Made by a program: the position numbers and the translations under genes. Below are positions 9,404 to 47,389 of a stretch of 64,000 bases of DNA, one piece after another. Every line of letters begins with the position of its first letter. Position 1 is the first letter of the stretch. The notes beneath the pieces are model-generated. The model was not told the DNA's origin and did not search any database. It worked only from the letters and a program-made list of their open reading frames with translations. This DNA comes from Candidatus Omnitrophota bacterium (GTDB lineage: Bacteria; Omnitrophota; Gorgyraeia; 2-01-FULL-45-10; JAHFGN01): assembly GCA_023247415.1 (NCBI GenBank), contig JAHFGN010000001.1:10062-74061 (forward strand), given 5' to 3'.

Positions 9404-9468
9404 GCTTGACAATGGCGGGGTTATAGTGTAAACTTCTATTTCAGAAAGTCATAAATAATTATAATAAA

Positions 9469-14556: not shown

Positions 14557-14609
14557 TCCCCTCACCCTTTATCCCTCTCCCCTTTAGGGGAGAGGGTAGG
14601 GTGAGGGGG
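14557..14609. repeat. PAL-family copy 2 (arms only, no 30-bp core)
   Basis: 'cccctcaccctttatccctctcccctttaggggagagggtagggtgaggggg'. Confidence 0.65.
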
Positions 14610-14622
14610 AAGAGAGACGAAT

Positions 14623-15657
14623 ATGCCGGTTGAGACGATTAAGTGGGAAGATGGCAGGGTTAAATTGATAGATCAGACGCTCCTGCCGCATAGATTCAAG
14701 TATTTGGTCTGCCGCGATGTAAAGACGCTCTGGAATGCGATAAAGAAACTGCAGGTGCGCGGCGCGCCGGCAATCGGCATAGCCGGGGCGCTCGGCGTGG
14801 TCCTGGGCGTCAAAGATTCTAAGGCGAAGAATCGCGGGGAGTTTATTAGAAAGGTGCGGAAGGCCGCGAAGTATCTTGCCTCATCGCGCCCGACGGCCGT
14901 GAATCTATTCTGGGCGCTCGCGAGGATGGAGCGTGTTGCTGAGAATTGTCAGACTGAGGATGTAAATGTTATAAAGAAGGCCCTCCTGCGCGAGGCGCTT
15001 TTGATGATAGAAGAGGACAAGAAGATATGCCGCTCGATGGCGAAATTCGGCGCGGCGCTGGTTAAAAACGGCGACAGGATACTTACCCACTGCAATGCAG
15101 GAGGGCTTGCCACAGCGGATTACGGGACAGCGCTCGGGGTATTGTTTGAGGCGAAGGCTAAAGGAAAAAAGATCAGGGTATATGTCGACGAGACCCGTCC
15201 GCTCCTTCAAGGCGCGCGGCTTACGACATGGGAACTGATGAGAGAGGGTATCGATGCCACGCTTATTTGCGACAATATGGCAGCGAGCCTGATGGAAAAG
15301 GGCAGGATTGATAAGATATTCGTGGGCGCTGACAGGGTTGTGTCCAATGGGGACTTCGCGAACAAGATAGGGACTTATGGCCTGGCCGTCCTGGCCAGGT
15401 ACCACAAGGTTCCATTCTACGTTGTCGCGCCGATCTCGACATTCGATTTGTTTCTCGCGCGCGGCAGCCAGATACCGGTTGAAGAACGCGGGGCCAACGA
15501 AGTTAGGAAGGTTCTGGGAACGCCTATCGCGCCGAAAGACGTTAAGGTATATAATCCAGCTTTCGATGTGACGCCGGCTAATCTTGTTACGGCGTTTGTA
15601 ACTGAAGTAGGAATATTCCGCAAACCATATGACTTCAAAAATAAAAAATTTAGGTGA
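14623..15657 (+). CDS. mtnA: S-methyl-5-thioribose-1-phosphate isomerase / eIF-2B-family protein
   Basis: 'KWEDGRVKLIDQTLLPHRFKYL...GAPAIGIAGALG' is typical of the MtnA/e2B2 family. Confidence 0.7.
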   Translation: MPVETIKWEDGRVKLIDQTLLPHRFKYLVCRDVKTLWNAIKKLQVRGAPAIGIAGALGVVLGVKDSKAKNRGEFIRKVRKAAKYLASSRPTAVNLFWALARMERVAENCQTEDVNVIKKALLREALLMIEEDKKICRSMAKFGAALVKNGDRILTHCNAGGLATADYGTALGVLFEAKAKGKKIRVYVDETRPLLQGARLTTWELMREGIDATLICDNMAASLMEKGRIDKIFVGADRVVSNGDFANKIGTYGLAVLARYHKVPFYVVAPISTFDLFLARGSQIPVEERGANEVRKVLGTPIAPKDVKVYNPAFDVTPANLVTAFVTEVGIFRKPYDFKNKKFR

Positions 15658-18800: not shown

Positions 18801-18862
18801 AAAAGACACTTTCCAGCTTGAGGGTAAGACACTTTCCCGATGCAATTGGAAAGCGTCTCTAA
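18801..18862 (+). repeat. Conserved ~60-bp intergenic element copy A (aaaagacactttccagcttgagg..agacactttcccgat..ttggaaagcgtctctaa)
   Basis: It is near-identical to the element at 57895-57955. It lies downstream of alr and upstream of the promoter of the 18954 giant gene. Confidence 0.6.
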
Positions 18863-18893
18863 GTTAAGGTTTAAAATAGTTGGATTTTGGCAC

Positions 18894-18947
18894 TTGACTA
18901 CGCAAATATATTGGGTATACTAATGTGGTTTAGGGTTAATAAAAAAC
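18894..18947 (+). promoter_or_regulatory. Sigma70-type promoter (TTGACT-16-TATACT) plus conserved leader 'aATGTGGTTTagGGTTAATAAAA' upstream of the 18954 giant gene
   Basis: -35 at 18894-18899 and -10 at 18916-18921. The leader motif is shared with the 22271 and 32114 promoters. Confidence 0.55.
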
Positions 18948-18953
18948 TTGAAG

Positions 18954-21900
18954 ATGCATATGAAAAAAATTATAATTATTTTAGCTATAGCAGCATTTTT
19001 ATCTTCCAATATAGCGTTGGCTGAGCCGGCCAATACCCTCGCCCCGTCACTGCGATTCCAGAGTTCATTTCCACATGAGCGGCCACAGACGCAAGGCGAC
19101 TCTGTACTCTCCGACGTAAAATTATTCACCGTCCTATTTGCAATAGGTAAACAACTCCTGATCGATAACAGGCCTATCCGCGCCATTCCGCGCGCAATAA
19201 GAAATAAATTCGTATTCGATCCGTCATTTCTCGCGGGCATAGAACCTGATGGTATACGGCGGGATGGCAGTACGATAATCGTACCTTATTCGAAGGGCAC
19301 GAAGGATTATGAAATAAGGATAAGGCCGAAAGAGCTGTTGAAGGGATCGAGCGCCGGATGGAAGATCTCCGACAGATTCGGGGTGCAGGCTGTGGAAATC
19401 AAGAAAGCAGCCGCTGATTCCAGTTTCAGGATGGCGGCCGGGGGCGGCGGCCCATCTGCGCACCAGGATGCTCGAACAGCGATGCTGGCTGATGGCGGCT
19501 GGTCGCCGCTTCTTGAGGAGCTTCGATCCAGCCTGCAGCAGGCAGCGCAAAATCAGGACCAATCCAGGCTTTTCATCTTCCTGGACGCCTGCAATGAGGC
19601 CCAGGCGAGCGACCGAAAAAATCCGATCGAAAACCGATATCCGATACTGCATGCGGTAACCCTGCTTTCGAAAGAGGAGAAGCGTCAACTGATTGATATA
19701 TTACTTCAGCAGAACAATCAGGAGAAGCGTTACCAGTCAGCCGTAACAGATTCTATCCTTTTGATGCTGGCCAAAAACATCCCTCAGGAATGGCTGAACA
19801 GATGGGCCGGTAACATGGAAGGCCGCACCATCTGGGATGTATCCAGCGAGGCCTGGAATGCCGGCGGCGGTCTGGGCCGTGTCATACAGTATCGCGTCCT
19901 CGCCATGCTGAACCTCCTAAAAGGGCACAATACGCGCATTCGCACCGTCGAGCCGCACTATCAGGAAAATAGAGACGGCACAAAACTGTCCTACGAATCC
20001 CTCCCCCTGCCAATCGAGAATAAACAGAAGATAGACGAATTTGAAGTAAAGTTTGGGATGAAGAAGGCAAAGGCGATCTGTTATCGCGGCATAGTCCATT
20101 ATAAAGCGGAGGATAACCAGACATATGAAGTCGAGGCGTATCGGATTGAAGACGAAGGCGGGTACTATACAAAGTGCATGTATAAATACGGCTCGGGAGG
20201 CCATAATGACCCTATAGTCACATGGGAAGACTTCTCCGCGTTCTTCTCCACGGCATCCTTAGAACTGATGAAGCGCGTCGAAGAAAAAGAGATGAGAGAA
20301 AGACAGGGCAGAAAGCCCCCTGTCATCCACTTCAACGATTCCCAGTTAGCGCCCGCAGTGGAATATTACCTGCAGGATTATTACAGGGAACCCTCCTTGA
20401 GAGACGCCCTGGTTGTATTTCAAACGCACACTATACCAAACCGGCAGGACTATATTTGGGAAAGGGGAGTGCAGGCTGTGAAAGATATGGGCATACACGG
20501 CGAGGCCTATGCTAAAATTTGGCTGCACTTCGGGCATCACAGGCCAAAACAGGGAGGCGGTTGGGAGGCCGTTGTAGATTGGGCTTCAGCAGGCATACGC
20601 GACGCCGGTTTAGCGTTAGGCGTAAGCAGACAGCAGTTGAGTGTTATCGGCCCGTTTGATGAATGGAAAGTGGAAGAACAGGGGAAGCCGTATGTTGATC
20701 TTATTGCGGCGACAAACGGAGATCTGCGCGAATTGACAGCGATAGAGTTCAGGCGGATTATGCGGCAGGTATGCGGCAATGATGTCGATGTGGAGGAGCC
20801 GACCGTAGAACAGGTTTTAAAGACCAAACAAGCGGCAAAAAAGGCATTGGGGAGCGAGCTGAAGAGGTTGAAAAATAACACGATGTTAACATTAAACCCT
20901 GACCAGTATGTTGTATCTTATTCAGGAAGGCTTGTCCCTGAGAAGGTCAGCAGAACGCGGGCATTTACAAATGAAAATATCGAAGCGCTCGTAAAAATGG
21001 GTGTTCAAGTAATCATATACGGCAATGTTCAAAATAGCGATCCGAGCCGCGCGATAGAGCGAGAGCTGTTAGGCCTGGAAAGAGATCTTAAGGAAAAGGG
21101 TTATCTCGGGAAATTTATCTTCATCCCAAGTTTCACTCCGGGGGATCAGAGGCTGCTTCTGGCCGCAACAGATATTCAGGCGCAGGTTTCGGATCCAAAT
21201 ACCGAAGCCGCTGGCGCCACAGAATCTGATATTGCCGCCTGCGCCGGGTTAGAGCTCGCGCCGCACTGGCGTGAGGGGATATTGCAGGCCCAGGGCATTC
21301 CAATAAATCTGGATGAGACAGGCGAAGGCAGCATACTCATACCTCGGGAAGACAAGCCGGAATCATACCTGGAAATTTTGACCGGGGTTTTAAGCAAGAA
21401 ACCGCCGGAGCTCGCGGAATACCAGGCGACATCGGTTCGCTTAAGCCGCGTCTTAGAGGCTGTGCTCACATCGGCCGAGAATCTCAGGCAATACGACGCA
21501 GCCTTATCCAGGAGGGATATGAGCAGAAAAACGGCCAGTGGAGTGAGCGGGGTGATGAAAGAAATCCACAGGATCAACCTCGATATAGGCGTCTATCATG
21601 AAGCAGGCAGGACCTTCTGGCACGTGATACCGATAGAGCTTGTCCCGTATCCTATAAGGAATAAGTTTATAGATATTGTTGCCAGGATGAACCGCGATTA
21701 TCCGGACGCGCCTGAAAAGATAAAGATAGTGACTGAACACCAGGACCTGTTTGACATAGCAGGGAGGCTCTCGGCAGATAATGACGTAGACGTTGCCCTA
21801 TCCCGGCGCGGCGATATAGACAAACTGCCGGATGGAGTAAAGGCGCTCGTCTTTGAAGGCGAATTGGGAAACTTCAGACAGCTGGAGGGGGTGCTCGCCT

Positions 21901-22124
21901 GTTTGAGAGCGTTGTCCATAAAGAATAGCGCGGAAAGATCAGATAAGTTGTCAAGGCTTTATAAACTTTTGACCGGCGAAGATCCGAAAAAAATACCGGA
22001 TATATCCGACCCGAAAACATTTGCCCGAAACTTTATATTCATCCTGCCGCCCATTGCAGTCGAGAATTACGAATACCTGCGAAAGTTAAACTCCAACCTT
22101 CTCCACCTCATCGAATCCGCATAG
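18954..22124 (+). CDS. Giant-family protein (about 1056 aa): signal peptide, TLAP N-domain, GT-B glucan phosphorylase/glycogen-synthase-like domain, family C-module
   Basis: 'MKKIIIILAIAAFLSSNIALAEPANTLAPS' (leader). 'VSSEAWNAGGGLGRV' and 'YSGRLVPEKV' are GT5/GT35-like. The C-terminus 'FIFILPPIAVENYEYLRK' matches the family C-module. A sigma70 promoter and shared leader lie upstream. Confidence 0.75.
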   Translation: MHMKKIIIILAIAAFLSSNIALAEPANTLAPSLRFQSSFPHERPQTQGDSVLSDVKLFTVLFAIGKQLLIDNRPIRAIPRAIRNKFVFDPSFLAGIEPDGIRRDGSTIIVPYSKGTKDYEIRIRPKELLKGSSAGWKISDRFGVQAVEIKKAAADSSFRMAAGGGGPSAHQDARTAMLADGGWSPLLEELRSSLQQAAQNQDQSRLFIFLDACNEAQASDRKNPIENRYPILHAVTLLSKEEKRQLIDILLQQNNQEKRYQSAVTDSILLMLAKNIPQEWLNRWAGNMEGRTIWDVSSEAWNAGGGLGRVIQYRVLAMLNLLKGHNTRIRTVEPHYQENRDGTKLSYESLPLPIENKQKIDEFEVKFGMKKAKAICYRGIVHYKAEDNQTYEVEAYRIEDEGGYYTKCMYKYGSGGHNDPIVTWEDFSAFFSTASLELMKRVEEKEMRERQGRKPPVIHFNDSQLAPAVEYYLQDYYREPSLRDALVVFQTHTIPNRQDYIWERGVQAVKDMGIHGEAYAKIWLHFGHHRPKQGGGWEAVVDWASAGIRDAGLALGVSRQQLSVIGPFDEWKVEEQGKPYVDLIAATNGDLRELTAIEFRRIMRQVCGNDVDVEEPTVEQVLKTKQAAKKALGSELKRLKNNTMLTLNPDQYVVSYSGRLVPEKVSRTRAFTNENIEALVKMGVQVIIYGNVQNSDPSRAIERELLGLERDLKEKGYLGKFIFIPSFTPGDQRLLLAATDIQAQVSDPNTEAAGATESDIAACAGLELAPHWREGILQAQGIPINLDETGEGSILIPREDKPESYLEILTGVLSKKPPELAEYQATSVRLSRVLEAVLTSAENLRQYDAALSRRDMSRKTASGVSGVMKEIHRINLDIGVYHEAGRTFWHVIPIELVPYPIRNKFIDIVARMNRDYPDAPEKIKIVTEHQDLFDIAGRLSADNDVDVALSRRGDIDKLPDGVKALVFEGELGNFRQLEGVLACLRALSIKNSAERSDKLSRLYKLLTGEDPKKIPDISDPKTFARNFIFILPPIAVENYEYLRKLNSNLLHLIESA

Positions 22125-22236
22125 CGCATTAGTAACAGATTAGCGTAGAGAAGTATCCCGACGATGTCGTAGGGGACATTTAAATGTCCCCTACGACGGA
22201 AGCACTTCTTTTGGCTAATCTATTACGCGCATTAGC
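22124..22236. repeat. Long imperfect palindrome with perfect 30-bp core 'tcgtaggggacatttaaatgtcccctacga' (PAL-core variant), probable terminator
   Basis: The core at 22167-22196 is related to the PAL core 'cgtagggcagacttaagtctgccctacg'. The outer arms 'gcgcattagtaacagattagc' and 'gctaatctattacgcgcattagc' are partly complementary. Confidence 0.55.
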
Positions 22237-22270
22237 AGAATTAAGATTTAAAAAAGTTATATGTTGGCTA

Positions 22271-22324
22271 TTGACAATGTCTAATTTATCATTATACTTA
22301 TGTGGTTTTAAGTTAATAAAATAG
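22271..22324 (+). promoter_or_regulatory. Sigma70-type promoter (TTGACA-16-TATACT) plus conserved leader 'tATGTGGTTTtaaGTTAATAAAA' upstream of the 22359 giant gene
   Basis: -35 at 22271-22276 and -10 at 22293-22298. Confidence 0.55.
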
Positions 22325-22358
22325 TTTAACAAAGACATATATAAAAAGGAGCCAAAAG

Positions 22359-25300
22359 ATGAGTAAGCGGGCAATAGCCAAAATCGTATCTCTGCTGTTA
22401 ATTCCTTCTTTTTTCGCCTCTGATATCGCCTTTGCGGCGAATATCAGGGACGCGCTTGCGCCATATTCCGGTCTAGAGCTTGCAAATGGTAAGGATGAGG
22501 AAAATCCTGTCCTTGCCGCAAGGCAAAATAAGGTACGGGCCCTGGTGAAAGCGAAGATGGCAGAGTCTCTGGCAAGGGCCATGTATGGAAGGTTGAAGAA
22601 ACATAACGATATATCTGCCGAAGTTATAAGACAGACAGTTGCCGCTGATGTAAAGAACTGGAGCGTTATGCGCCAAGCGGCGAGCGGCAGCAGCATAACC
22701 GTTAAGAGATTTAGGGGCGCAGATAAGGAAATAGATAAAGGCAATACCTTTGTCATCGCAACCGGCGGCGGAGACTGCGCAGGGCTCAATCCAGCGATAG
22801 CGGCATTCATTCGCGAGATGCAGAAAGAGGGAAAAAACGTCCTGGGTGTTAAGGAGGGCTACAAAGGAGTCGCATCGCCGGAATTCTTGAAGAAGTACGC
22901 CGTCTTATTGGAAAATGAGGATGCCGGCCATATCCAAGGCCTGGCCTCTACGGTCCTCGCATCCTCCAGAGAGAATCCTTACGAGATAGATGCCGCCGGC
23001 GAATTAAAAGATCCGAATAGGATCGAAAACTGCCGGAAAAACCTCGATGGGTTCGCTGGATTCGCGATAATAGGCGGTGAGGACAATATGGGTGTCGCAG
23101 GGCAATTCTCTACGGATGAGAAATTGCCCAAGCAGGTAGCGGCCATTCCAAAGAGCATCGACAATGACGTGGATACGCAGATGCTCGGTTTCCATACAGC
23201 TTGGACTGAAGCGAGGGATATATTCTACGCGCCGCGCCTTGAGGGCGCGATGGCGCAAGCCGAGAAAGAATTTGATGAGATTATAGAAAGATTTGTAAGC
23301 ACAGCGGTATCCGCCGATGCCCACAAAAAATATAATGTGACGCTTGCGCAGGGCGACCAGGCCAAAAAAGCCGGCGCCTGGCTGGCCAACTTCATACACA
23401 GCGCGAATCCTAACGCCGACCCCATATTTCAGAGACTGCCTGCGCCGCTTAAGATTCACCTTCTGCATTTAAGGGATTCCATCGTGGTCCTGACCCCAGA
23501 CGAACCCCGCAGCCTAAAGGATATAGTGGCAACCTCATATAATATTTATAAGAAGAAACGGACGGCGAACGTCTTATTAGTCGATGGATTTGTGTTTGGC
23601 AAGGATGAAGATGGCTATACGAAAGAGGCTATAGCTAAGGACCATCTCCTAAAGGCGTTGTACGAAGGACAAGAACCGCCGTATGCCCCTGATTTTATTG
23701 AACACAAGGCGCATCTTGTGAGAAGGGGCATGATATACCACCTCGCAAAACTGCCTCATGCTAATGTGAAGGGCGGTCAAGATGTGCGGTTTTCAATGGT
23801 TGGACGGATGGATGTCAGTAGATCCAAGTATTCTGTGACTGAGATCATGGGCCGTAAGGCAGGATGGCTTGCCCTATATGCGGGATCGAAATATCCAAAG
23901 GACTTTGAGGAGCTGCCGATTGAACTGCAAAAGGCCGTCGAAGAGAAGAGGGCCCATGTGCTTATATTGACGCCGGAAAAGCCCGCGACTCTAAAAGAAA
24001 TTGTTGATGAGGCTGGCCGGATATGGAAGGATACAGGCCGATGCGACATATTAGTGGCAGAAGGGCTCTCTTTTTCTAAAGACGATGAGTATCTCAAAAA
24101 ATTACTTGAAAATAACAAAGTCCTGAATGCCTATTATGATGAGCAGGTGGTCCACCCTGCCTATGACAGCCACGGCCACCCGAAGTTGGAAGGCATAGGC
24201 TGGTTTGTGAGGTGGGCTATATCGCATTTTCTTCATGAAGAGCTGGCGTATATCCCTGAATGGAAGATGAGTTATGAATTAAGGGGGCTTGCGCCGGATG
24301 AGTATGACACGCGTTTAGGCGAGGCATTTGGAAGAAAGGCCGCAGAGCTTCTCTTATCCGGCTCAAGCGGCAAAGCTGTAACACTGCCTGATGGACTGGA
24401 ACCAATATACGAAAACATACAGGTTCGGCCGATAGCGGATGCAGTGCGGCAGAAGAACATAACAACACAGGTTGAACGCGGACTCCTCACCGAGGAAGAG
24501 TTGAGGCGGCAGGGCGTTTTTCAAAATTTACGCCGGGCAGCCAGCGGCAGCGCCAACGTAGAACGTTTCAAACGTGAAAGAGAGATTATTAAAAATATAT
24601 TGAAGGCGCAAAATATCAGCTTGCCAGCCGGCATAAGCGCAGGCGAGGTCCTCTCCATGCTAGAATTCGCTGACGCGAAGGGCCACGTCGCGATCGTCGC
24701 GCTCGACCAGGGAACGCTTATACAATGGGTGGATCCGAAGGCCGATAAAAAAGATCCGTCACAGGAGTCTATAGATAAAGGCACTGTGGTCAGGTTGACG
24801 ATCATGTACTATTTGGCCAATGGGATGCGAGCTAAAAACAGACGCGTCGGTTTTCTGCTGGATAAGCCCGCTTTGCAGGCAATCTCTAACGAAGGATCTG
24901 AAGGGGCTCGCGCCGCTAAACTGATCGCCAGAGGCACTCTGCCTCCGGATTTCATGGATGTTATAAAGGATATGCCGCTTGTGGCGCAGATAGAAGAAGC
25001 AAGAGGAGAGCGCGGAGTGGCAAAAGGCGTTTACTACACTGCCAAAAAGCGGGATGGCAACTTTAGCGTAGAAGAGGCGGTCAAGCTTGGCAGTCGCCTG
25101 ATAAAATCGAATGTCTTCTTCTATTGCGGCGGCGAACTGACAGAGGAAGAAAAGGAGTTTAATAAAAAACAGTGGGAGTTTATAGGAGAAGTCGCGAAGG
25201 AATGCCGGGAATTTGGCATAGGATATGTCAGTGAGCTCTTATATCTGGTGCCGCCGGAGATGTTAACGAGGCATAATACAGACGAGAAGTCATACAGGGC

Positions 25301-28300
25301 TACGCCGGAATTTATGAATGCCCACAAAGCGGCTACAATTATAGCGGCTGAAAGGATGCTCAAGATACCAGGCCTTACGCTTGCCAAATCAGCCCACCCA
25401 TATCCCGGAGAGGCCGGTTGGAAAAGTGTGAGCCCTGCTGAAAGGAAAGAAGCCCTCAAGCAGGTCGCCAATGTTGCTGGCAATAGATGGCTCATCTTAA
25501 GCGCGGATGAGCCTTGGGAGACATTCCGTCTTAAAGTAGAAGAAGCGGCTATATATGGTCAGATGGCAGGCATACTTGTCGGCCGTTCTCCCATTAAGAA
25601 CATCACACAAAAGGTTACAATAGACGGCAAGAATATAGATATGCTTAAGCCGGATGACGCAGTCAAGGATATTCTACAAACCGAAGGCGTGGAGAAACTA
25701 TTGGAGCTTCTCGGCTATATCGATAACGCGCCGGCGAACGTATGGAGAGGCCTCGGCTTCGGCGATAATTTCCATCCGCAAGCGATAAAAGATCAACTCG
25801 ACTATGCCCGCTATTCAGGAAGCGGTTTCACGTATGTCTATACGCCGGAGGACTTAATCGGAGATCCTGATGTTGTGAAAGGGCCTGAACAGGGATATAG
25901 CTGGGCAGGATACGGCATCTCAGCCTTTTTTGGGCTGGCGAAAAGGTTAATAGCGGAGATATGGTACCACTCTGTGCAGAAAGACGGACTTTCCAAGGTT
26001 CCTGGCGCAACACACGACAAGCTTCGTGAAGATATCGAAGGCGAGAAATCCGTATTCGCCAAGATTATGGGAAAAGACGAAACCCAGCCGCAGGTGGTTC
26101 ATATAGGCTTTAATGAGAAGATAGGGCCGGGCGGCGAACAGAAGCAACTATTTGTAGATCTGTGCGTAAGAGAGCGCAGATTGGTGAAAAGGCTAAAGAG
26201 AGAGTTGGAGAAATATATACATACCGAAGCCGAATTCGTTCGGTATCAAAAGGCATACGCGGCGTGGGTCAGCAGGCAGAGCGCTATCGGAGTCAAGTGG
26301 ACAAACCCCGGACTGCCAGAGCTTCCTGAGTTTATGGCGGGATTCGACATGCCAATATTCGAGGCGATACAAAATGTCAGGGCAGAGATAGTGCGCTATT
26401 TTAATGAGATCGAATTAAAGCCCGGACAGTTTATCCGTTCCCCGGTTGGATTTATCCATTCCATAGTTGGCTCTTATCAGGGGCATCCCTTGAGCGGCAA
26501 AAAGGCAAAGAATGAGGCGTGGTATATCTTCTCAATCGGCAAAGACGCCGAAGGACATGACAGGCTGCTGTATTTCGAGCCGCAGCAAACATCGAATACA
26601 ACCTATAGTCCGCTCGATTTTCCTACTCCTATAGTCTGGAAGAATGGAGGGGCGGAGATGAGAAAAGATATAGGCGCGGGGATAGATAAGGATATAGATG
26701 AATTGCTGCAAGACGGAGATAGCACGCCGGCGAATGATGAAGACGCGGTCAAAGTAATCGCCGAGAGGGCATTCTACTATAGGCCGGCAAACCCGGATGA
26801 GTTCGTAGTAAATAGCTTCGAAAATGTCACGAGCGGCGGGTTATACGCGTATCCGAAAAACGCGCGGGCAGAGTCTTTGATAGAAGGGAAAAACGCGTAT
26901 CCGAATTGGCCGGAAGACCTATTTACGCTTCACAGAATTATCTTAGTAGGCGACAGCAAGAAAAAAGAGTATGCCTTAATAACAGTCAGGCCGCCGCCAG
27001 AAGCGTATAGGTTCGACGAATTCTTCGTCATAAAAGGCAAGGTGAAGGCCAGGATAGGCGGGCAATGGTATCCGCAAGTTCTCGCTCCAGGGGCTTCTAT
27101 CTTAGTGACTGATCCGCGCAGCCAAATCGAGATACGGGCCGAAGGCGAGGCCGAGGTCCTAAGGCTGTATCATACAAAGCAAGGGCCATCACCGCGTTTG
27201 GCAAAAGCAGGCGAGGCTGTGGGGACTTCGAAAGCAGCGGAGTGGGTGAAACTTATTAAAGATCCAAATTCTTCTGAAGGCATCCGTCGTAAAGCAGCCG
27301 ATGATTTGGGCCTAATCGAATCTGTCCCGGAAGAGGCTGTCACAAGCCTTATTGAAATGTTAGACAGCGAAGACAAAGGAGTTCTAAAATATGTGGTTAT
27401 GGCATTAGGAAACATCAGGGTAAAGCGCGTTGTCCAAGGGCTTGTAGATATGCTTTCTCAAGAGGATTTTGACATGGAGGTGCGAATAGAACTTATTATC
27501 GCGCTGGGAAAAATCGGCGAACGTATGAGTGATGATTCGCAAATAAGAGCGGCCCTGGAAAATATTCTGAAGAATTTAAGCCAGATAGACCTTAACCATG
27601 CCGCCCGGTACACTCTGACTAATATGGACGCCGCTAAAAAGATGGCCGAACTCCTTAAAGATCGTACCAGCGCAAATGGAACTGATCTTCAACAGGAGAC
27701 GGCTGAAGAAGACGTAGAGACTAAAGTTGCCGGATGGAACAAAATTGATGCAGACTCCTTGCTGGGGACTCTCGCCGCCATCAGGGTAAGAAATGGGCAA
27801 TTGCGAAAGGGCCCTATCCTCATAGCCTATGACACCGGATTAGAGGAATTCCCCACCGGCCATGTAGCTCAGGCAGCGGATGCCAAGATAAATGAATATC
27901 TGGATGGAGGGCTCGTCAGTGTTCGCGGCACAGGGGAGAAGCTGCTTGAGGCCATTAAAGAGGTTGTCGCGGCTAAAGGTTTGAATCCAAAAGATGTGGT
28001 AGTCATAGCCGGAGACAATACCGCGGAGGCAGCGCGTAAATTTGGGACTGTCATCCATGTCAAAAATACAGATGGCCAGTTCCTGCCCATAATAGAATTC
28101 TACAACCTCGCGTTGAAGATACTATACGGCCTCGGCGAAGATGAGATCCTGGAATCCCTCAAGCGTATAGGCGGGGCGGAGTCATTCACAACAGAAGATG
28201 TGCGAAAGCTGTTTAGCGCGGGAATCATCAGGATACTGCCGAAGACGTTCCCGATAAGACATGCGGATGCTGTCGAGGCGTACAGAGCTACTCGCCGCGC

Positions 28301-28316
28301 GTTAGAATCGTTGTAA
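22359..28316 (+). CDS. Giant-family protein (1985 aa): signal peptide, TLAP N-domain, phosphofructokinase-like domain, DeoC/LacD/DhnA-type class I aldolase-like domain, HEAT-like repeats, family C-module
   Basis: 'ATGGGDCAGLNPAIAAF', 'IIGGEDNMG' and 'EIMGRKAGWLALYAG' are PFK GGD/MGR motifs. 'VAIVALDQG' is LacD/DhnA-like. The C-terminus is 'IIRILPKTFPIRHADAVEAYRATRRALESL'. An AAGGAG RBS sits 8 nt upstream. Confidence 0.8.
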   Translation: MSKRAIAKIVSLLLIPSFFASDIAFAANIRDALAPYSGLELANGKDEENPVLAARQNKVRALVKAKMAESLARAMYGRLKKHNDISAEVIRQTVAADVKNWSVMRQAASGSSITVKRFRGADKEIDKGNTFVIATGGGDCAGLNPAIAAFIREMQKEGKNVLGVKEGYKGVASPEFLKKYAVLLENEDAGHIQGLASTVLASSRENPYEIDAAGELKDPNRIENCRKNLDGFAGFAIIGGEDNMGVAGQFSTDEKLPKQVAAIPKSIDNDVDTQMLGFHTAWTEARDIFYAPRLEGAMAQAEKEFDEIIERFVSTAVSADAHKKYNVTLAQGDQAKKAGAWLANFIHSANPNADPIFQRLPAPLKIHLLHLRDSIVVLTPDEPRSLKDIVATSYNIYKKKRTANVLLVDGFVFGKDEDGYTKEAIAKDHLLKALYEGQEPPYAPDFIEHKAHLVRRGMIYHLAKLPHANVKGGQDVRFSMVGRMDVSRSKYSVTEIMGRKAGWLALYAGSKYPKDFEELPIELQKAVEEKRAHVLILTPEKPATLKEIVDEAGRIWKDTGRCDILVAEGLSFSKDDEYLKKLLENNKVLNAYYDEQVVHPAYDSHGHPKLEGIGWFVRWAISHFLHEELAYIPEWKMSYELRGLAPDEYDTRLGEAFGRKAAELLLSGSSGKAVTLPDGLEPIYENIQVRPIADAVRQKNITTQVERGLLTEEELRRQGVFQNLRRAASGSANVERFKREREIIKNILKAQNISLPAGISAGEVLSMLEFADAKGHVAIVALDQGTLIQWVDPKADKKDPSQESIDKGTVVRLTIMYYLANGMRAKNRRVGFLLDKPALQAISNEGSEGARAAKLIARGTLPPDFMDVIKDMPLVAQIEEARGERGVAKGVYYTAKKRDGNFSVEEAVKLGSRLIKSNVFFYCGGELTEEEKEFNKKQWEFIGEVAKECREFGIGYVSELLYLVPPEMLTRHNTDEKSYRATPEFMNAHKAATIIAAERMLKIPGLTLAKSAHPYPGEAGWKSVSPAERKEALKQVANVAGNRWLILSADEPWETFRLKVEEAAIYGQMAGILVGRSPIKNITQKVTIDGKNIDMLKPDDAVKDILQTEGVEKLLELLGYIDNAPANVWRGLGFGDNFHPQAIKDQLDYARYSGSGFTYVYTPEDLIGDPDVVKGPEQGYSWAGYGISAFFGLAKRLIAEIWYHSVQKDGLSKVPGATHDKLREDIEGEKSVFAKIMGKDETQPQVVHIGFNEKIGPGGEQKQLFVDLCVRERRLVKRLKRELEKYIHTEAEFVRYQKAYAAWVSRQSAIGVKWTNPGLPELPEFMAGFDMPIFEAIQNVRAEIVRYFNEIELKPGQFIRSPVGFIHSIVGSYQGHPLSGKKAKNEAWYIFSIGKDAEGHDRLLYFEPQQTSNTTYSPLDFPTPIVWKNGGAEMRKDIGAGIDKDIDELLQDGDSTPANDEDAVKVIAERAFYYRPANPDEFVVNSFENVTSGGLYAYPKNARAESLIEGKNAYPNWPEDLFTLHRIILVGDSKKKEYALITVRPPPEAYRFDEFFVIKGKVKARIGGQWYPQVLAPGASILVTDPRSQIEIRAEGEAEVLRLYHTKQGPSPRLAKAGEAVGTSKAAEWVKLIKDPNSSEGIRRKAADDLGLIESVPEEAVTSLIEMLDSEDKGVLKYVVMALGNIRVKRVVQGLVDMLSQEDFDMEVRIELIIALGKIGERMSDDSQIRAALENILKNLSQIDLNHAARYTLTNMDAAKKMAELLKDRTSANGTDLQQETAEEDVETKVAGWNKIDADSLLGTLAAIRVRNGQLRKGPILIAYDTGLEEFPTGHVAQAADAKINEYLDGGLVSVRGTGEKLLEAIKEVVAAKGLNPKDVVVIAGDNTAEAARKFGTVIHVKNTDGQFLPIIEFYNLALKILYGLGEDEILESLKRIGGAESFTTEDVRKLFSAGIIRILPKTFPIRHADAVEAYRATRRALESL

Positions 28317-28328
28317 AAATGCCTAAAA

Positions 28329-31300
28329 ATGTCGAGAAATTTTAACAAATTTTGTGCTGCAGGGTGCCAACTTGTGGGACGTCCCCTTTTGGTCCTCGTA
28401 TTTCTCCTCAATGATCTGGGATTTGCCAGCGGCCACGATGCGCTGGCGCCTCACTATATCTCCGGGCTCCGCGAAGACGACGATAATGGCGCCGCGGTTC
28501 TTGACGCCCGCGCCAGCAGGGTCAAACAGGAGATGAGGGCGGCCGCATCGGGCGCGCTTGCCGAAAAGATACGCGCCAAATTACATGAGAAAAACATACC
28601 CGTAACCAGCGAAGAACTCGAGGAGATAGTCAGCGACAACGTCCGATCCGGCGGCCTGCGCCAGGCAGGGAGCGGTGAGTATACGCCGTCGCCGCAGGAA
28701 CTCGGGCTCATGGACAGCCTCGGCTTTGAGTTGGCTGATAAACAGGGCAGGGTCCGGTATAAGCGCGATTATAAACCGCCGGAGCTGGGTGTCGATCTCT
28801 GGTATATGACGCATGGCGCAACGGACGGAAATAAAGCGGCACTGCTTCAAGGGAGCCGTTCAGACGGAGAGCAAAGGTTTTATCTGAATGAGGAGGGGCA
28901 TAAACAGGCGAAAGAGGGCGCGGAGAAACTGTGGAATATTTTAGGCGTTCGCCTTATGACTGGCGAGAAGATCGTATTTTTGACAAGTCCGATAAGCCGC
29001 GCCCGCCAGACAGCAGATCATTTCATAAAGTTTGTCGAGATCAAAAGCGAGGGTAAGTTAAATATTGAATTAGTCCCTCTGGAAATACTTAAAGAGGTTG
29101 ACCATGGATTCTGGGATGGCAAGAAGAGAGAAGAGTTGCCGGAAGATGAGAAAATCCTGGCAGGGCAGAATTATGCAAGAAATGTCTTTGTAAAATCTCA
29201 AATTCTTCCGGGAGAAAACTTCCTCGAATTCATAAAACGTGTCCGCACCGCCGTCGAATTCATCAACCGCGAGTATAAAGGTAAGACGGTCATTATATTC
29301 GGACACGGTTTCTATTCAGCCGCAATCAAGATTGTCCTCAAGACCCAAGAGGTGGACCAAATAATCGCTGAAAAAGGATATATCGACTGGTCAAAACCTC
29401 TCCAACCCCATACTCACGAACGCTGCCAGCCGATCCATTTCGCTGCGACAGCAGGCGAGCGCAAGGCGACGAGCGGGGATGAGATTGAGCAATTTAAGCC
29501 AGTGGAATTGAGCCCGCAAAATATAGAGCGAGAAACGCCGCGGCAATTGGATGGCCTGCCAGCCAATACAGCGATGCTTCTTCGGGTCATACCGAAAACG
29601 CCCCAGGAAGCCCAGGAATGTAAAGATCTTGTCGAGCTCAATATCGGGCTAAGGCCCCTTATGACTTATGAAGGACTGTTAAAAATATACACTCAAGAGG
29701 CTCTCGCGCATAGGATCTCGAAGGGCGAAGGATCTCTGACAATATTGCTTCCCTTTAGACTTAAGGTCCCGGGCCTCAAAGGTCTCTCAGAGTTGAAGGC
29801 GGTATTAGGCATTGAAAAAACATGGGGAATGCTTCCAGATGAATTTCAATCGGACTTCAATCTTTTAGGAACAAGGAGAGATACAGTCGAAGTGCGAAGA
29901 AGATTGTTGACAGAGGCATTTAAACTACTTTCTGCCGGGGAGTTGCGCCTCGAAAATATAGCGGGATTTCCTATCGGCCTTCCAGAGAAAGCGGATAAAG
30001 AGTACTTCGCGAACGAGATGAAACTGGACCCGAATAGACTCTTCTCAGAGACTGAAGCGAATGAGATTTCAAGTCGGCTCGCAGCCGCAAAGGCCGAGCA
30101 GGAAGCTGAGAAATTACAAGAAAAACTGCAAAAAGAGCGAGATAGGGATGCCGCCCTGGCCGCTGCCAGGCTCGATCCAATTATTCAAAAGGCGAAGGCG
30201 GATCTAAACAGCATGCTCGATGAACTGGCCTCCTCTTCAGTCCCTCCGGCGCCGGATGAAGTGGAGGCCTTAAGAGGCGACATCGCTAAATTATCGGATG
30301 CCGAGCCGCTAGATAGAGGCAATTTTCAGCAGGCGGGCGCGAGCCTGAAAGGGCGCCCAGATGGTTTGCGTCGGAGGATCAAGAAGCTGGAAGAAAAATA
30401 TAGAGAAGAGCGAGAGATAACAGATTTGCTCTTGCGAATAATCTATTTAATAGACGCGAAAGATTGGCCAAAATTTTTGGCGCAGGATGTGCCGAACGCG
30501 TTCAGCTCTAATATTCTTGGGGAATATCCAAAGCTGAGCGATCGAACAGTCGAGCGCTTAAACCAGATAGTTCACTCTATCCATCAGGCGCTGCATTCTC
30601 AACACTTCGATGACCCAATAATTTATTCTACCTTAAGGACCATCCAGGCCATGATTGTGAACGCCTTAGCAGCCGCTGGAAGGATATCAGAGTCAGCGGC
30701 GCAAGTTTTCTGCGAAGACAACCTCTCAACTCAAGGCGATGTGTGGGTTCGCCAGAGAAATATTTGGTCAGAACGGCTTAAGCGAAGATTGGAAAGGGGT
30801 GGATTAGTCAAGGGCGGCCTTCCGCCTCCTCCTCCGCAGTCTATACTAAAGGCTATGGGGGCTAGAGGCAAGACGGGTGAGATAGCGTCCCGCTGCCTTG
30901 GGGTGTTTGACCTTCTCATTCTCTCAAGCAGGAGAGAGCAGTTCTCTGAGCCTGCGGCCCGGGATATCACTTTAGGGCCATTCACAGCTCTTTACTGCTC
31001 TATGCTCCGTATTGAAAAGGCTGACAATGGCGCGATTGCCGGTGTCTCCGACTATTTAAAATCGTTGTATCTACGCGTTGGCGAGGTGCCGGCAGATATA
31101 AAAAAGGGCGTCCTCTTAGGCAAGGCGGCCTATCTTGTTAATCTCGGGATGGTCGAGGTTTCGCTCGCCAGCATGGCGTCAGACCATTTCGGCGCTAAAG
31201 ACTTTGCGGCTGAATTTATGGATGTCGCCAGAGGGATATCCAAGTGGTTACCCAAAAAATACCCAGAATACAAGCCTTGGTATCCGCCGCTTCTGGCCGC

Positions 31301-32033
31301 GTATCTGAATGAGCCTGGCAGGCCCGCGCCTGAGGCGCAGGCTGGCGGCCAGACCGCGCCAACAACATCTGACCGAAAATCTACGAGCGGGATAAGGCAG
31401 GGCCTCGCCGCCGGTCCGGCAGTTCGCGCTGCAATGAGCGGAAGGGAAAAGAAAGAGGCGCGGGGGGCTAACATTCCCCAATCCCTAAGCGGCAAGATGG
31501 CTTTGCGCAAGACTCTCTTGACTTTGGTCTCTAAAGAATTGCAAAAAGGGCCTGTCGTGATAGCCACTGACACTGAACTTGTGCCAATTGAGATTGCCCA
31601 GATGGCTGAGAAGGTGACGAAGAGGTACTTAGGCGGCAGCGTGATGCATATAAGAGGCGCTGGTGAGAAGCTTCTTGAAGCTATCAGGGCCAAAGGCCTA
31701 AACCCGAAAGATGTTGTGATAATAGCCGGAGACAACACTGCGGGAGAGGCCCGAAAATTAGGGACTGTCATCCATGTCAAAAATCCGGAAGGAGAGTTCT
31801 TACCTATATTAATAGAGCTCTATGACCTCGCCCTGAAGATACTATATGGCCTGGGCGAGGAGAAGATATTGGAGTCTCTTAAGGGTATCAGCGCGGATAG
31901 ATGTGATGAGGCGGATGTGAAGAGGCTGCTCATTGAAGGCATAATCAGGATTCTGCCGAAGACAATTAAGATATCTGGCGCGGAGAAGCTAGAGGCGTAC
32001 AGCGCGACTCAAGCCGCCCTCCAATCGCTGTAA
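28329..32033 (+). CDS. Giant-family protein (about 1234 aa): TLAP N-domain, histidine-phosphatase (phosphoglycerate-mutase-like) domain, coiled coil, family C-module
   Basis: 'LWYMTHGATDGN' and 'VIIFGHGFYSAA' are branch-1 histidine-phosphatase motifs with a THG core. The C-module is about 70% identical to that of the preceding gene. The annotated 5' end is encoded by a REP element, so the true start is uncertain; an in-frame TTG lies before 'VLVFLLNDLGFASG'. Confidence 0.75.
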   Translation: MSRNFNKFCAAGCQLVGRPLLVLVFLLNDLGFASGHDALAPHYISGLREDDDNGAAVLDARASRVKQEMRAAASGALAEKIRAKLHEKNIPVTSEELEEIVSDNVRSGGLRQAGSGEYTPSPQELGLMDSLGFELADKQGRVRYKRDYKPPELGVDLWYMTHGATDGNKAALLQGSRSDGEQRFYLNEEGHKQAKEGAEKLWNILGVRLMTGEKIVFLTSPISRARQTADHFIKFVEIKSEGKLNIELVPLEILKEVDHGFWDGKKREELPEDEKILAGQNYARNVFVKSQILPGENFLEFIKRVRTAVEFINREYKGKTVIIFGHGFYSAAIKIVLKTQEVDQIIAEKGYIDWSKPLQPHTHERCQPIHFAATAGERKATSGDEIEQFKPVELSPQNIERETPRQLDGLPANTAMLLRVIPKTPQEAQECKDLVELNIGLRPLMTYEGLLKIYTQEALAHRISKGEGSLTILLPFRLKVPGLKGLSELKAVLGIEKTWGMLPDEFQSDFNLLGTRRDTVEVRRRLLTEAFKLLSAGELRLENIAGFPIGLPEKADKEYFANEMKLDPNRLFSETEANEISSRLAAAKAEQEAEKLQEKLQKERDRDAALAAARLDPIIQKAKADLNSMLDELASSSVPPAPDEVEALRGDIAKLSDAEPLDRGNFQQAGASLKGRPDGLRRRIKKLEEKYREEREITDLLLRIIYLIDAKDWPKFLAQDVPNAFSSNILGEYPKLSDRTVERLNQIVHSIHQALHSQHFDDPIIYSTLRTIQAMIVNALAAAGRISESAAQVFCEDNLSTQGDVWVRQRNIWSERLKRRLERGGLVKGGLPPPPPQSILKAMGARGKTGEIASRCLGVFDLLILSSRREQFSEPAARDITLGPFTALYCSMLRIEKADNGAIAGVSDYLKSLYLRVGEVPADIKKGVLLGKAAYLVNLGMVEVSLASMASDHFGAKDFAAEFMDVARGISKWLPKKYPEYKPWYPPLLAAYLNEPGRPAPEAQAGGQTAPTTSDRKSTSGIRQGLAAGPAVRAAMSGREKKEARGANIPQSLSGKMALRKTLLTLVSKELQKGPVVIATDTELVPIEIAQMAEKVTKRYLGGSVMHIRGAGEKLLEAIRAKGLNPKDVVIIAGDNTAGEARKLGTVIHVKNPEGEFLPILIELYDLALKILYGLGEEKILESLKGISADRCDEADVKRLLIEGIIRILPKTIKISGAEKLEAYSATQAALQSL
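28353..28390 (+). repeat. REP element copy (tgtgctgcagggtgccaacttgtgggacgtcccctttt)
   Basis: It is the same roughly 38-bp sequence as the two REPs flanking the RAYT gene. It contains the palindromes ctgcag and ggggacgtcccc. Confidence 0.75.
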
Positions 32034-32035
32034 AT

Positions 32036-32090
32036 TTTGTGCGGCAGGCACCCTGCCGCAGAGAGCAGGGTGCCTGCACACGGTTAAGAT
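32036..32090. repeat. Degenerate REP-like palindrome (possible REP pair/terminator)
   Basis: 'ttttgtgcggcaggcaccctgccgcagagagcagggtgcctgcacac' shares 'ttttgtgc.gcaggg.gcc' with the REP and folds as a long hairpin. Confidence 0.45.
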
Positions 32091-32113
32091 TGCAAAAATT
32101 TTGTTTTCGACCC

Positions 32114-32167
32114 TTGACAAGTGAAAGAATATCAGTATACTTATGTGGCTTTAAAATTAAAAAAATG
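32114..32167 (+). promoter_or_regulatory. Sigma70-type promoter (TTGACA-16-TATACT) plus conserved leader 'tATGTGGcTTtaaaaTTAAAAAAA' upstream of the 32216 giant gene
   Basis: -35 at 32114-32119 and -10 at 32136-32141. An AAGGAG RBS lies at about 32203-32208. Confidence 0.55.
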
Positions 32168-40931: not shown

Positions 40932-40947
40932 AAAAAGTTTAAAAATA

Positions 40948-41022
40948 TCCCCTCACCCTACCCTCTCCCCATGACCGTAGGGCAGACTTAAGTCTGCCCT
41001 ACGGCTCCCTGGGAGAGGGTAG
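40948..41022. repeat. PAL-family copy 3
   Basis: 'cccctcaccctaccctctccccatgaccgtagggcagacttaagtctgccctacggctccctgggagagggtag'. Confidence 0.7.
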
Positions 41023-41037
41023 AAGAAGGATGGAATC

Positions 41038-47352: not shown

Positions 47353-47389
47353 AAAGGGGACGTCCCACTACAAGGCACCCTGCAGCACA
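47352..47389 (-). repeat. REP element copy (reverse orientation), 3' flank of RAYT
   Basis: 'aaaaggggacgtcccactacaaggcaccctgcagcaca' is the reverse complement of the REP consensus. Confidence 0.75.

Follow-up and report, generated by a model that had tools for sequence, protein, structure and literature searches.

Giant genes and their probable transcription units

The window, a stretch of 64,000 nucleotides on a contig of a Candidatus Omnitrophota bacterium, carries on its forward strand a single family of giant genes whose products each combine a membrane helix at the N terminus with internal domains of glycolytic or sugar enzymes and a common C-terminal domain. Three promoter copies (P1, P2, and P3, all on the forward strand) each have a strong hairpin directly 5′ and a giant gene 3′. 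The hairpin 5′ of P1 (18801..18862; -20.6 kcal/mol, z = -3.7) belongs to a repeat, D10, with a second copy at 57895-57956, and probably ends the preceding alr transcription unit. Giant gene 1 (18960..22124; 1054 aa) combines, by Pfam, gene call, and alignment, the membrane helix, a starch-synthase-like domain, and the family C-terminal domain; ATG 18960, which matches the automatic gene call on the source contig, is a more likely start than position 18954, as proposed in an earlier note on this DNA. A strong hairpin followed by a T run (22147..22211; -36.6 kcal/mol, z = -7.1) has the appearance of a terminator separating gene 1 from P2. Giant gene 2 (22359..28316; 1985 aa), with an AAGGAG ribosome-binding site at 22346, encodes phosphofructokinase and HEAT repeats, and giant gene 3 (28329..32033; about 1214-1234 aa) a phosphoglycerate-mutase-type domain (both by Pfam and gene call); gene 3, whose first codons fall inside a D1 repeat copy, lacks a promoter cassette of its own and probably shares a transcript with gene 2. 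The third hairpin (32039..32081; -33.6 kcal/mol, z = -6.0) lies directly 5′ of P3, and giant gene 4 (32216..38104; 1962 aa), with AAGGAG at 32204, has by Pfam a 6-phosphogluconolactonase/NagB-like domain and FBPase_3. Pfam finds no domain in giant gene 5 (923 aa) and GAPDH, PGK, and TIM domains in giant gene 6 (2104 aa); the two genes together span 38160..47352. Neither has a cassette, and both are therefore probably read from P3, less certainly so for gene 6 because a hairpin of -56 kcal/mol lies at 40932-41030. The window is also rich in intergenic repeats, among them D1 (4 copies around a Y1 transposase), the D3/D9 palindromes, and D10.

Three copies of a sigma-70-type promoter

The core promoters consist of TTGACT (P1, 18894..18921) or TTGACA (P2, 22271..22298; P3, 32114..32141), a 16-nt spacer, and TATACT. 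All three were located by pattern match and fit 10-11 of the 12 consensus positions (11 in P2), with a near-TTGACA and a near-TATAAT hexamer spaced within the 16-18 bp of sigma-70 promoters and a start codon 40-100 nt downstream of each. The three related strings that the earlier note quoted are present in the sequence as it gave them, and the full motif, TTGACN-16-TATACT-N-ATGTGG-Y-TT, has exactly 3 matches in the window (18894, 22271, and 32114, none expected by chance), all before giant genes. Likewise, TATACTNATGTGGNTTNNNNTTAANAAAA with up to 3 mismatches matches the window at 18916, 22293, and 32136 only (0.00 expected, 100 shuffles), and TTGAC-N17-TATACTNATGT at 18894, 22271, and 32114 only (0.07 expected). 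Two details of that description need amending: ATGTGG does follow TATACT, but not immediately, one variable base (A or T) standing between them; and the third copy fits the proposed TTAATAAAA only with a 1-nt shift or 2 mismatches.

The 10 nt that follow the -10 box form a start-site block in each copy: AATGTGGTTT in P1 (18922..18931, predicted start G 18927/18928), TATGTGGTTT in P2 (22299..22308, predicted start G 22304/22305), and TATGTGGCTT in P3 (32142..32151, predicted start G 32147/32148), the starts being predicted from distance to the -10 box. Conservation among P1-P3 is block-wise rather than uniform: three-way identity is 10% further upstream, 72% in an 18-nt block 5′ of the -35 box, 83% in the -35 box, 19% in the spacer, 100% in the -10 box, and 80% in the start-site block. 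Conserved blocks on either side of a divergent spacer point to selection rather than to recent copying. The three genes are paralogues with common N- and C-terminal modules, and the ATGTGG block is common to them within this genome only, as might be expected if the similarity were a remnant of duplication or gene conversion with no function beyond the core promoter; we regard such a remnant as very improbable, given the diverged spacer, N-terminal protein modules that are just 31-37% identical, and flanking blocks that are conserved in 7 other contigs, of different organisms (see below).

The form of the start-site block in this organism is W-ATGTGG-Y-TT. ATGTGGYTT does not follow the -10 box in the family promoters of relatives and is specific to the organism of the window; a short version, ATGT, also lies 3′ of the -10 box at unrelated promoters, namely those of ilvD in the window (TTGACA 48105-48110, an 18-nt spacer, TATACT 48129-48134, then TAATGT), of a MazE-like gene in locus L013, and of a small gene in locus L004. 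Because the longer stretch is organism-specific and the shorter one is found at unrelated promoters, ATGTGG is probably the discriminator and start-site region. The earlier note was right about the ilvD hexamers at 48105-48134, next to which only TAATGT remains of the downstream motif, and one of its proposals, a transcription-start-region motif, is the best reading of ATGTGG, though of a stretch that relatives lack. Its broader claim, that conservation extends beyond the promoter hexamers and is linked to the gene family, holds for 12 promoters on 8 contigs, but ATGTGGYTT is not the part that is conserved.

An upstream block conserved across organisms

The part that the earlier note missed is a 21-bp block, GTTAAG-N3-TAAAAWAGTTAG, beginning 31 bp 5′ of the -35 box in P1-P3 and conserved across organisms together with an A-rich leader block. 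The upstream blocks are GTTAAGGTTTAAAATAGTTGG (P1, 18863..18883), ATTAAGATTTAAAAAAGTTAT (P2, 22240..22260), and GTTAAGATTGCAAAAATTTTG (P3, 32083..32103). Scored with a position weight matrix built from sites of other organisms only, P1, P3, and P2 are the top three matches in 128 kb (25.6, 21.3, and 21.2 bits; next 17.1).

The same architecture occurs in 12 family promoters on 8 contigs: the 3 in the window and 9 on 7 contigs of other organisms (two each in L004 and L012, one each in L010, L011, L013, L015, and L018). All have the upstream block in fixed register to a core promoter of TTGACA (TTGACT in P1) and TATAMT, separated by 16-17 bp, and after it an A-rich leader block that resembles the 3′ half of the upstream block; the proteins encoded behind the 9 promoters outside the window have only a distant C-terminal domain in common. 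In L012 and L013 an ORF6N and HAMP gene pair lies 3′ of the giant gene. The block starts 31 nt from the -35 box in 9/12 promoters, 30 nt in 2/12, and 21 nt in 1/12 (L004a), the last being 10 bp, or one helical turn, closer. All 12 sites have TTAA at positions 2-5 and A at both 12 and 14, and 11/12 have G1. Among the sites compared, the upstream block is the most deeply conserved part of the cassette, and its conservation is, at the level of sequence, more base-specific than an A/T-tract element would need. It is asymmetric, with no dyad and no clean tandem half-sites; TTAAG and TTAG recur 16 bp apart inside it, with a further copy of the entire block about 65-68 bp downstream.

How closely the block is tied to the family is indicated by leave-one-locus-out scans covering both strands of 219 kb: the best 10 matches (at least 19.3 bits) are all family promoters, and one 18.6-bit match lies within coding DNA at 15633. 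The block is absent at other promoters of the same loci, specifically those of abiE (9406), ilvD (48105), the MazE-like gene in L013, and lytB in L018, and, in L004, at two small genes and a tRNA promoter region. The same motif is thus found at the same position before functionally related genes across genomes, as in a regulon, and is absent from about 8 other promoters, none of them obviously strong; the 219 kb contain no rRNA or ribosomal-protein promoter. Two family genes, at L014 9379 and L011 9926, apparently have upstream regions of their own but lack the cassette. Pattern matches on viral contigs were rejected as instances of the element because their unconstrained positions score negatively (mean about -5, vs about +3 in family sites).

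The abundance of intergenic repeats in this window could suggest that the cassette, too, is mobile or REP-like and carries a promoter by chance; we give this idea very little credence. The cassette is not palindromic, occurs in the DNA scanned before family genes only, in one orientation and in fixed register to the -35 and -10 boxes, and is found at equivalent positions in other organisms; D1, D3, and D10 of the same window do behave as REP or MITE elements, and the cassette does not.

The A-rich leader block

A second conserved block lies at about +5 to +23 from the predicted start: TTAGGGTTAATAAAAAACTT in P1 (18930..18949; 3 edits from the 13-mer ATAAAATAGTTAG), TTTAAGTTAATAAAATAGTT in P2 (22307..22326; 4 edits from the upstream-block consensus and 2 edits from its 3′ half, p = 0.008), and TTTAAAATTAAAAAAATGTT in P3 (32150..32169; 3 edits from the upstream-block consensus, with 0.1 such matches expected in the window). 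Similarity between P2 and P3 persists to about 22341 in P2 coordinates. Judged by its resemblance, the leader block repeats the upstream block in degenerate form. Specifically, i) it matches the upstream-block 3′ half better than do natural AT-rich windows (Fisher p = 4e-7) or shuffled sequences (2e-4 to 5e-4); and ii) in L010, L011, L012, and L015 it is the second- or third-best match to the upstream-block matrix. The leader block ends 25-32 nt after the -10 box in 8/12 promoters, and the two copies are spaced about 65-68 bp apart (75-76 bp in L010). About half of the promoters match weakly (4/13 edits in window P3, L004a, L004b, and L011a), and in L004a, L004b, L010, and L011a the best leader 13-mer match is weak or lies elsewhere. 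Leader block and start codon are separated by distances between about 11 and 150 nt.

Given the predicted start, the leader block would be transcribed, and two accounts place its function in RNA. According to the first, the A-rich unstructured 5′-terminal 20-25 nt are a binding site for a protein like S1, Hfq, or CsrA or determine how stable or how well translated the mRNA is, the leader then being unrelated to the upstream DNA block and compatible with either reading of that block. The block does keep its place with respect to the 5′ end and not to the start codon, is unstructured, and is made of A-rich triplets; we nevertheless consider this account improbable, since likeness to a block that is not transcribed is explained more simply at the DNA level, and a spacing to the ribosome-binding site that ranges from about 11 to 150 nt fits a translation enhancer poorly. 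The second account, a structured cis-regulatory leader such as a riboswitch or attenuator, draws on conservation that reaches into the transcribed region and is the hardest of all to credit: the leaders (73-82% A+T) fold no better than shuffles (z = +1.45, -1.18, and 0.01), RNAalifold predicts 0 pairs, and Rfam gives no match at gathering thresholds or at E up to 5. On the same evidence, the 5′-UTR RNA element suggested in the earlier note finds no support as a structured RNA.

A proposed dedicated regulator or a possible generic strong-promoter module

Our preferred interpretation, held with somewhat less than even confidence, is that P1-P3 are paralogous copies of a conserved sigma-70-type cassette in which a dedicated regulator acts at the upstream block and at the weaker downstream copy. 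A putative sequence-specific DNA-binding regulator would recognize the upstream block and, from a fixed position on one face of the helix, would aid binding of RNA polymerase to the near-consensus core promoter; the same factor, bound to the weaker downstream copy, might limit or tune output; and ATGTGG would serve as discriminator and start site only. Transcription in the window would then be co-ordinated over three units: gene 1; genes 2 and 3; and genes 4, 5, and probably 6. The blocks, the constancy of their spacing, their conservation in several organisms, and their link to the family are observed; the start sites, protein binding, direction of regulation, and operon structure in this scheme are all predictions. 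Pfam scans of all window genes found no regulator gene there, and none came to light elsewhere. Also counting against this interpretation are the asymmetry of the upstream block, the small number of other promoters compared, the weak leader matches, the 18.6-bit match in coding DNA, and the two family genes that lack the cassette.

The principal alternative is a generic strong-promoter module, in which the upstream block and the T-rich 10-11 bp stretch between it and TTGACA are the UP element of this lineage, contacted by alpha-CTD and marking highly expressed genes generally; the leader would be an A-rich unstructured 5′ end favouring promoter escape or translation, and the apparent family specificity would reflect the few other strong promoters in the sampled loci. 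Numbered from the predicted start, the upstream block extends from about -65 to -45, its A tract covering about -55 to -49, and the T-rich stretch follows at about -44 to -38; both fall within the A/T-rich -60 to -38 region typical of UP elements and coincide with the distal and proximal alpha-CTD subsites known from E. coli rrnB P1, so that an UP-type element accounts for the position just as well as a regulator site does; the block that lies 10 bp closer in L004a puts its A tract on the proximal subsite. Core hexamers near consensus, as strong promoters would have, the usual abundance of glycolytic enzymes, and the lack of a regulator gene in the window fit as well. We nonetheless think a generic module rather unlikely: GTTAA (about -65 to -61) varies little or not at all over 8 contigs, lies outside the classical UP region, and is conserved with more base specificity than minor-groove reading by alpha-CTD needs; the second copy downstream of the start is left unexplained; and the block is absent at 7-8 other promoters, including a tRNA promoter in L004. 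Weighing the two, we slightly favour the dedicated regulator.

The cassette is best read as a family-associated sigma-70 promoter flanked by two putative protein-binding sites. It shows conservation between organisms and, over the roughly 219 kb scanned, stands before the giant-protein family only; its occurrence before a rare family in at least 8 uncultured bacteria points to a shared control system. Accounts of giant proteins with embedded glycolytic domains in uncultured bacteria have until now stayed at the protein level, and the literature searched yielded nothing on their expression. Co-ordinated amounts of the giant proteins, as the shared cassette suggests, would fit a membrane-attached sugar-processing assembly whose members work together. 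It is possible, though we say so with greater reserve than for our preferred interpretation, that one dedicated regulator, acting at directly repeated 21-bp sites around the core promoter, controls a whole pathway of giant enzymes in a deep-branching uncultured lineage; if so, the motif would be a genomic marker of the giant-protein regulon in any genome of the clade. Practical handles include a searchable 21-bp motif in fixed register, with which the full gene set could be defined in complete genomes; predicted start sites for comparison with metatranscriptomes; and a bait sequence for the binding protein. Should the block prove generic, this would be the first description of the UP-type element of the lineage, useful for annotation but less surprising.

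Comparison with known systems

UP elements are A/T-rich segments of strong sigma-70 promoters of the E. coli rrnB P1 type, classically located from -59 to -38. The cassette resembles them in having an A/T-tract-rich segment directly 5′ of a near-consensus -35 box, with tracts near -52 and -41, roughly a helical turn from each other, and a variant displaced by 10 bp, but differs in its invariant GTTAA beyond the classical region, in its restriction, among the sampled loci, to one gene family, and in its second copy 3′ of the start.

Class I activator sites and dual operators are familiar at sugar promoters, as exemplified by CRP at -61.5 and by the operator pairs of GalR and NagC, and the CggR operator lies downstream of the B. 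subtilis gapA promoter. Like these, the cassette has a conserved site at a fixed, helix-phase-dependent distance 5′ of the -35 box and a second related site just 3′ of the start, at genes of glycolysis and sugar metabolism; unlike these, its motif matches none of their sequences, is asymmetric rather than palindromic, and occurs in copies about 65-68 bp apart (75-76 bp in L010).

At the protein level, the closest comparison is with the giant Archaeovorin proteins of Omnitrophota, which contain TIM, GPI, FBPase, PGM, and aldolase domains (West-Roberts et al., bioRxiv 10.1101/2023.11.21.568195); promoters are mentioned nowhere in that paper. Both groups are very long, membrane-associated proteins of uncultured bacteria with embedded glycolytic enzyme domains, but Archaeovorins exceed 30 kaa, compared with 0.9-3.8 kaa for the family described here, which is defined by its common C-terminal domain and single N-terminal helix.

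Results

The strings that the earlier note had quoted from ahead of three giant genes were all found where it had placed them. The long motif matches the window with at most 3 mismatches only at 18916, 22293, and 32136 (0 expected from shuffles), and the only matches of TTGAC-N17-TATACTNATGT are at 18894, 22271, and 32114 (0.07 expected), the promoters we call P1, P2, and P3. An ungapped three-way comparison reveals that their similarity is arranged in blocks and is not uniform: three-way identity is 10% further upstream, 72% in an 18-nt block, 33% in the 12 nt that separate it from the -35 hexamer, 83% in the -35 hexamer itself, 19% in the 16-nt spacer, 100% in the -10 hexamer, and 80% in the 10 nt after the -10, with an A-rich stretch following. 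The claim that this is more than a promoter stands insofar as a larger conserved unit is real, but only the downstream half of that unit had been seen; the upstream block (18863-18883, 22240-22260, and 32083-32103) had been overlooked. Two observations contradict neutral retention of the sequence after gene duplication: the spacer has diverged, and other organisms conserve the blocks. The ilvD promoter, previously credited with a weak version of the downstream motif, does lie at 48105-48134, with an 18-nt spacer, and has only TAATGT after its -10. A scan of genome and metagenome contig collections with the composite motif TTGAC-N17-TATACTNATGTGGNTT returned nothing except two unrelated chance matches in each (a Bacteroidales contig, an Ardenticatenaceae contig, a sigma-factor gene coding region, and a 1.2-kb fragment), so the species-specific composite motif is absent there.

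The giant genes of the window form one family, in which a hydrophobic N-terminal helix and, behind it, a conserved LAP motif precede a large middle part containing sugar-metabolism enzyme domains and a common C-terminal domain of about 200 aa. By Pfam, gene 18960 is starch-synthase-like; 22359 has phosphofructokinase and HEAT repeats; 28329 is of histidine-phosphatase/PGAM type; 32216 has 6PGL/NagB-like and FBPase_3 domains; 38160 has none; 41038 has GAPDH, PGK, and TIM; and gene 162 has NagB-like, PIG-L, and ROK domains. The family was opened up by an exhaustive profile search and not by word-indexed protein searches: the C-terminal domain profile matched 228 proteins among 1.84 billion, always at the extreme C-terminus and in proteins of up to 3815 aa, whereas a word-indexed search that used the PFK giant at full length yielded, besides the query, just one distant relative and one eukaryotic transcript, and word-indexed searches with the C-terminal alignment or a 150-aa C-terminal fragment gave no match, missing even the query's own protein. 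The relatives carry PFK, CofD, PGM, GPI, ROK, GatZ, transaldolase, or FBPase_glpX domains, and the family thus consists of sugar-metabolism enzymes built into long proteins.

The stretches ahead of genes 28329, 38160, and 41038 are short and contain no promoter, and we infer three transcription units: 18960 alone; 22359 with 28329; and 32216 with 38160 and perhaps 41038, whose membership is uncertain because it is preceded by a hairpin, a copy of a nested palindromic repeat with a fold of -56 kcal/mol. The window lies on a metagenome contig of 194,841 bp (ENA ERZ27297570), where the automatic call for gene 32216 (1996 aa) takes the -35 box of P3 (TTG 32114) as its start; ATG 32216, with AAGGAG upstream at 32204, is the more plausible start of this fourth giant gene.

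DNA around ten relatives was retrieved, and nine more promoters in these contigs of other organisms share the same layout (L004 9874 and 16339, L010 2903, L011 358, L012 2316 and 9903, L013 9903, L015 581, and L018 96). Measured to the -35, the upstream block GTTAAG-N3-TAAAAWAGTTAG begins at a distance of 31 nt in 9 of the 12 promoters, of 30 nt in L011 and L018, and of 21 nt in the first L004 cassette; it is followed by a TTGACA-like hexamer, a 16-17 nt spacer, and TATAMT. Positions T2, T3, A4, A5, A12, and A14 of the block are invariant in all 12 sites, and G1, A13, and A16 are present in 11. A pattern built from the window alone matches L004 once at no more than 1 mismatch (0.01 expected), exactly ahead of the -35 of the giant PFK gene. 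The cassette has a near-consensus sigma-70-type core, and an upstream block whose conservation is base-specific and whose distance is fixed, once moved by one helical turn. Family genes without a cassette are mostly internal to operons, with the exceptions of L014 9379 and L011 9926, and no promoter was found in L016 and L017, which are closer relatives.

Cross-validation ties the upstream block to the family within the loci scanned: i) with a position weight matrix from which all window sites were excluded, the top three matches in the whole window, both strands included, are P1, P3, and P2 (25.6, 21.3, and 21.2 bits), and the next best has 17.1 bits; ii) in leave-one-locus-out scans of the DNA available (219,034 bases, both strands), the ten best matches (at least 19.3 bits) are all family promoters, and the two indel variants score 12-13 bits; iii) the best non-family match, CTTCAAAAATAAAAAATTTAG at 15633-15653 (+) with 18.6 bits, lies in the overlap of two coding genes with no -35/-10 behind it and is probably due to chance; and iv) the block is absent from the other recognisable promoters of these loci (abiE at 9406, ilvD at 48105, the L013 MazE-like gene, L018 lytB, and two small genes and a tRNA in L004). 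Searching viral contigs for the block together with TTGAC yielded 9 matches, some at real-looking promoters; we rejected these as chance matches, since their scores at pattern-free positions are negative (about -5 on average versus about +3 for family sites). The cassette is conserved across organisms and, within the 219,034 bases, restricted to one gene family. A mobile repeat carrying the promoter is contradicted by the asymmetry of the cassette, its fixed register, and its context.

Downstream of the -10, the cassette promoters carry ATAAAAAGTTAG-like sequences (ATAAAATAGTTTA in P2; ATAAAAAAGTTAG and ATAAAAAGTTAG in L012; ATAAAAAGGTAG in L010 and L015; ACAAAGTTAG in L018). The best match to this leader block ends 25-32 nt after the -10 in 8 of 12 promoters; in both L004 cassettes, L010, and the L011 cassette the best 13-mer match is weak or located elsewhere. 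The leader block lies anywhere between about 11 and about 150 nt ahead of the start codon. It is similar to the 3′ half of the upstream block, and is the second- or third-best match of the upstream-block matrix in L010, L011, L012, and L015; it takes 3 edits to turn the P3 copy into the upstream consensus and 4 for the P2 copy, with 0.1 and 2.45 matches, respectively, expected at these distances in the window. This likeness has a combined p of 5e-4 and 2e-4 in two tests against composition-preserving shuffles and 4e-7 against 1,149 natural AT-rich windows of the same loci. About half of the promoters show a weak match. Spacing between the two copies is mostly 65-68 bp; in L010 it is 75-76 bp. 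The leader block is related to the upstream block and fixed relative to the promoter. By eye no -35/-10 follows it, and a second promoter behind it was rejected.

None of the relatives' cassettes has the ATGTGG-Y-TT block. A shorter version, ATGT, occurs 1-4 nt after the -10 in both L012 cassettes and in L015, and also at unrelated promoters: ilvD (48129-48140), the L013 MazE-like gene (5406-5420), and L004 7243-7317 (at about 7280-7295). Its recurrence at this distance in several unrelated promoters suggests a lineage-wide start-site preference in this organism group. We therefore read ATGTGG as the discriminator and start-site region of this organism's promoters, sharpened in the three paralogues; the stretch that the earlier note took as distinctive is nearer to a generic promoter-proximal signature, an outcome it had named as counting against it. 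Two other readings were rejected: a mini-ORF ATG-TGG-TTT-TAA (MWF*), because an ATG placed 1 nt past the -10 would fall outside the transcript made from this promoter; and a sigma-dependent pause element, because TAnnnT at +5 to +11, present in all three copies, easily arises by chance in DNA of about 80% A+T. Sigma-54 or IHF sites match only partially by eye.

A structured 5′-UTR RNA element, as had also been proposed, is unsupported: the P1-P3 leaders fold no better than shuffles (z = +1.45, -1.18, and 0.01), RNAalifold predicts 0 pairs, and Rfam gives no match to the leaders at gathering thresholds or at E up to 5. That the leader acts as an unstructured, A-rich signal at the 5′ end of the RNA is possible but unlikely.

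Several hairpins and repeats lie between the genes of the window. Very stable hairpins directly 5′ of P1, P2, and P3 have energies of -20.6, -36.6, and -33.6 kcal/mol (z -3.7 to -7.1). A 62-nt hairpin-forming repeat has two copies, 87% identical, 3′ of the alr and shikimate kinase genes (18801-18862 and 57895-57956). Nested palindromic repeats made up of CCCCTCACCCT...GGGGAGAGGG around CCGTAGGGCAGACTTAAGTCTGCCCTACGG occur at 12243-12340, 14558-14610, 22167-22196, 40949-41020, and 60858-60940. An IS200-like Y1 transposase gene (47394-48002, minus strand) is flanked by inverted copies (47353-47393 and 48026-48101) of a repeat, TTTGTGCTGCAGGGTGCC..GGGACGTCCCCTTTT, some 40-76 nt long, with two more copies upstream of other genes (28315-28390 and 63105-63180); the arrangement resembles a REP-associated transposase with its REP elements, and L018 has a similar sequence ending in ACGTCCCCTT. 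The copy at 28315-28390 separates the stop codon of gene 22359 from the body of gene 28329; read in frame, it contributes about the first 20 codons to the longest ORF, and has apparently taken the place of any upstream region that gene 28329 once had. The automatic call for this gene starts at TTG 28389. Elsewhere in the window, an AbiEi/AbiEii-type toxin-antitoxin pair (9469-10861) has its own TTGACA-17-TAAACT promoter at 9406-9434, and the gene behind the pair (10864-12237) encodes a TatD-type DNase domain fused to a radical-SAM domain.

Discussion

We conclude that the cassette is real, non-random, and both larger and more widely conserved than first described: a promoter with conserved flanking putative protein-binding sites, defining a putative regulon. 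We tentatively suggest that a sequence-specific DNA-binding protein activates the family promoters through the upstream block and tunes their output through the downstream copy, where the same putative protein would bind; activation and tuning together would then co-ordinate expression of the family. The main rival, that the upstream block is a lineage-specific UP-type element read by the alpha-CTD of RNA polymerase, fits the A/T tracts near -52 and -41 as well as the 10-bp shift, but leaves the invariant GTTAA near -63 and the downstream copy unexplained; we consider it somewhat less likely, in a comparison that covers loci with no rRNA or ribosomal-protein promoters. As to the dedicated regulator, none was found among the genes of the window, which encodes no transcription factor, co-occurring or otherwise, of the kind the earlier note proposed to look for. 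An ORF6N-domain gene and then a HAMP-domain gene lie 3′ of the PGM-type giant in both L012 (19100-19710 and 20502-21122) and L013 (21190-21602 and 21575-22177), with upstream sequence that is similar by eye; these genes are possible regulator candidates.

The cassette is of interest mainly because the protein family behind it is unusual and little understood, and because the motif makes co-regulation of that family directly testable. Like the window family, the 'Archaeovorin' giant proteins of Omnitrophota contain glycolytic domains; promoters or regulons are mentioned neither in the 'Archaeovorin' preprint nor in a 2026 preprint on Omnitrophota genomes. The core of the cassette is a sigma-70-type promoter of the ordinary kind, and its upstream block may act in the manner of an UP element or of a class I activator site. 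In having paired sites that bracket a sugar-metabolism promoter, the cassette is reminiscent of the operator pairs of GalR and NagC and of the CggR operator that lies downstream of gapA; its sequences are unrelated to those of GalR, NagC, or CggR.
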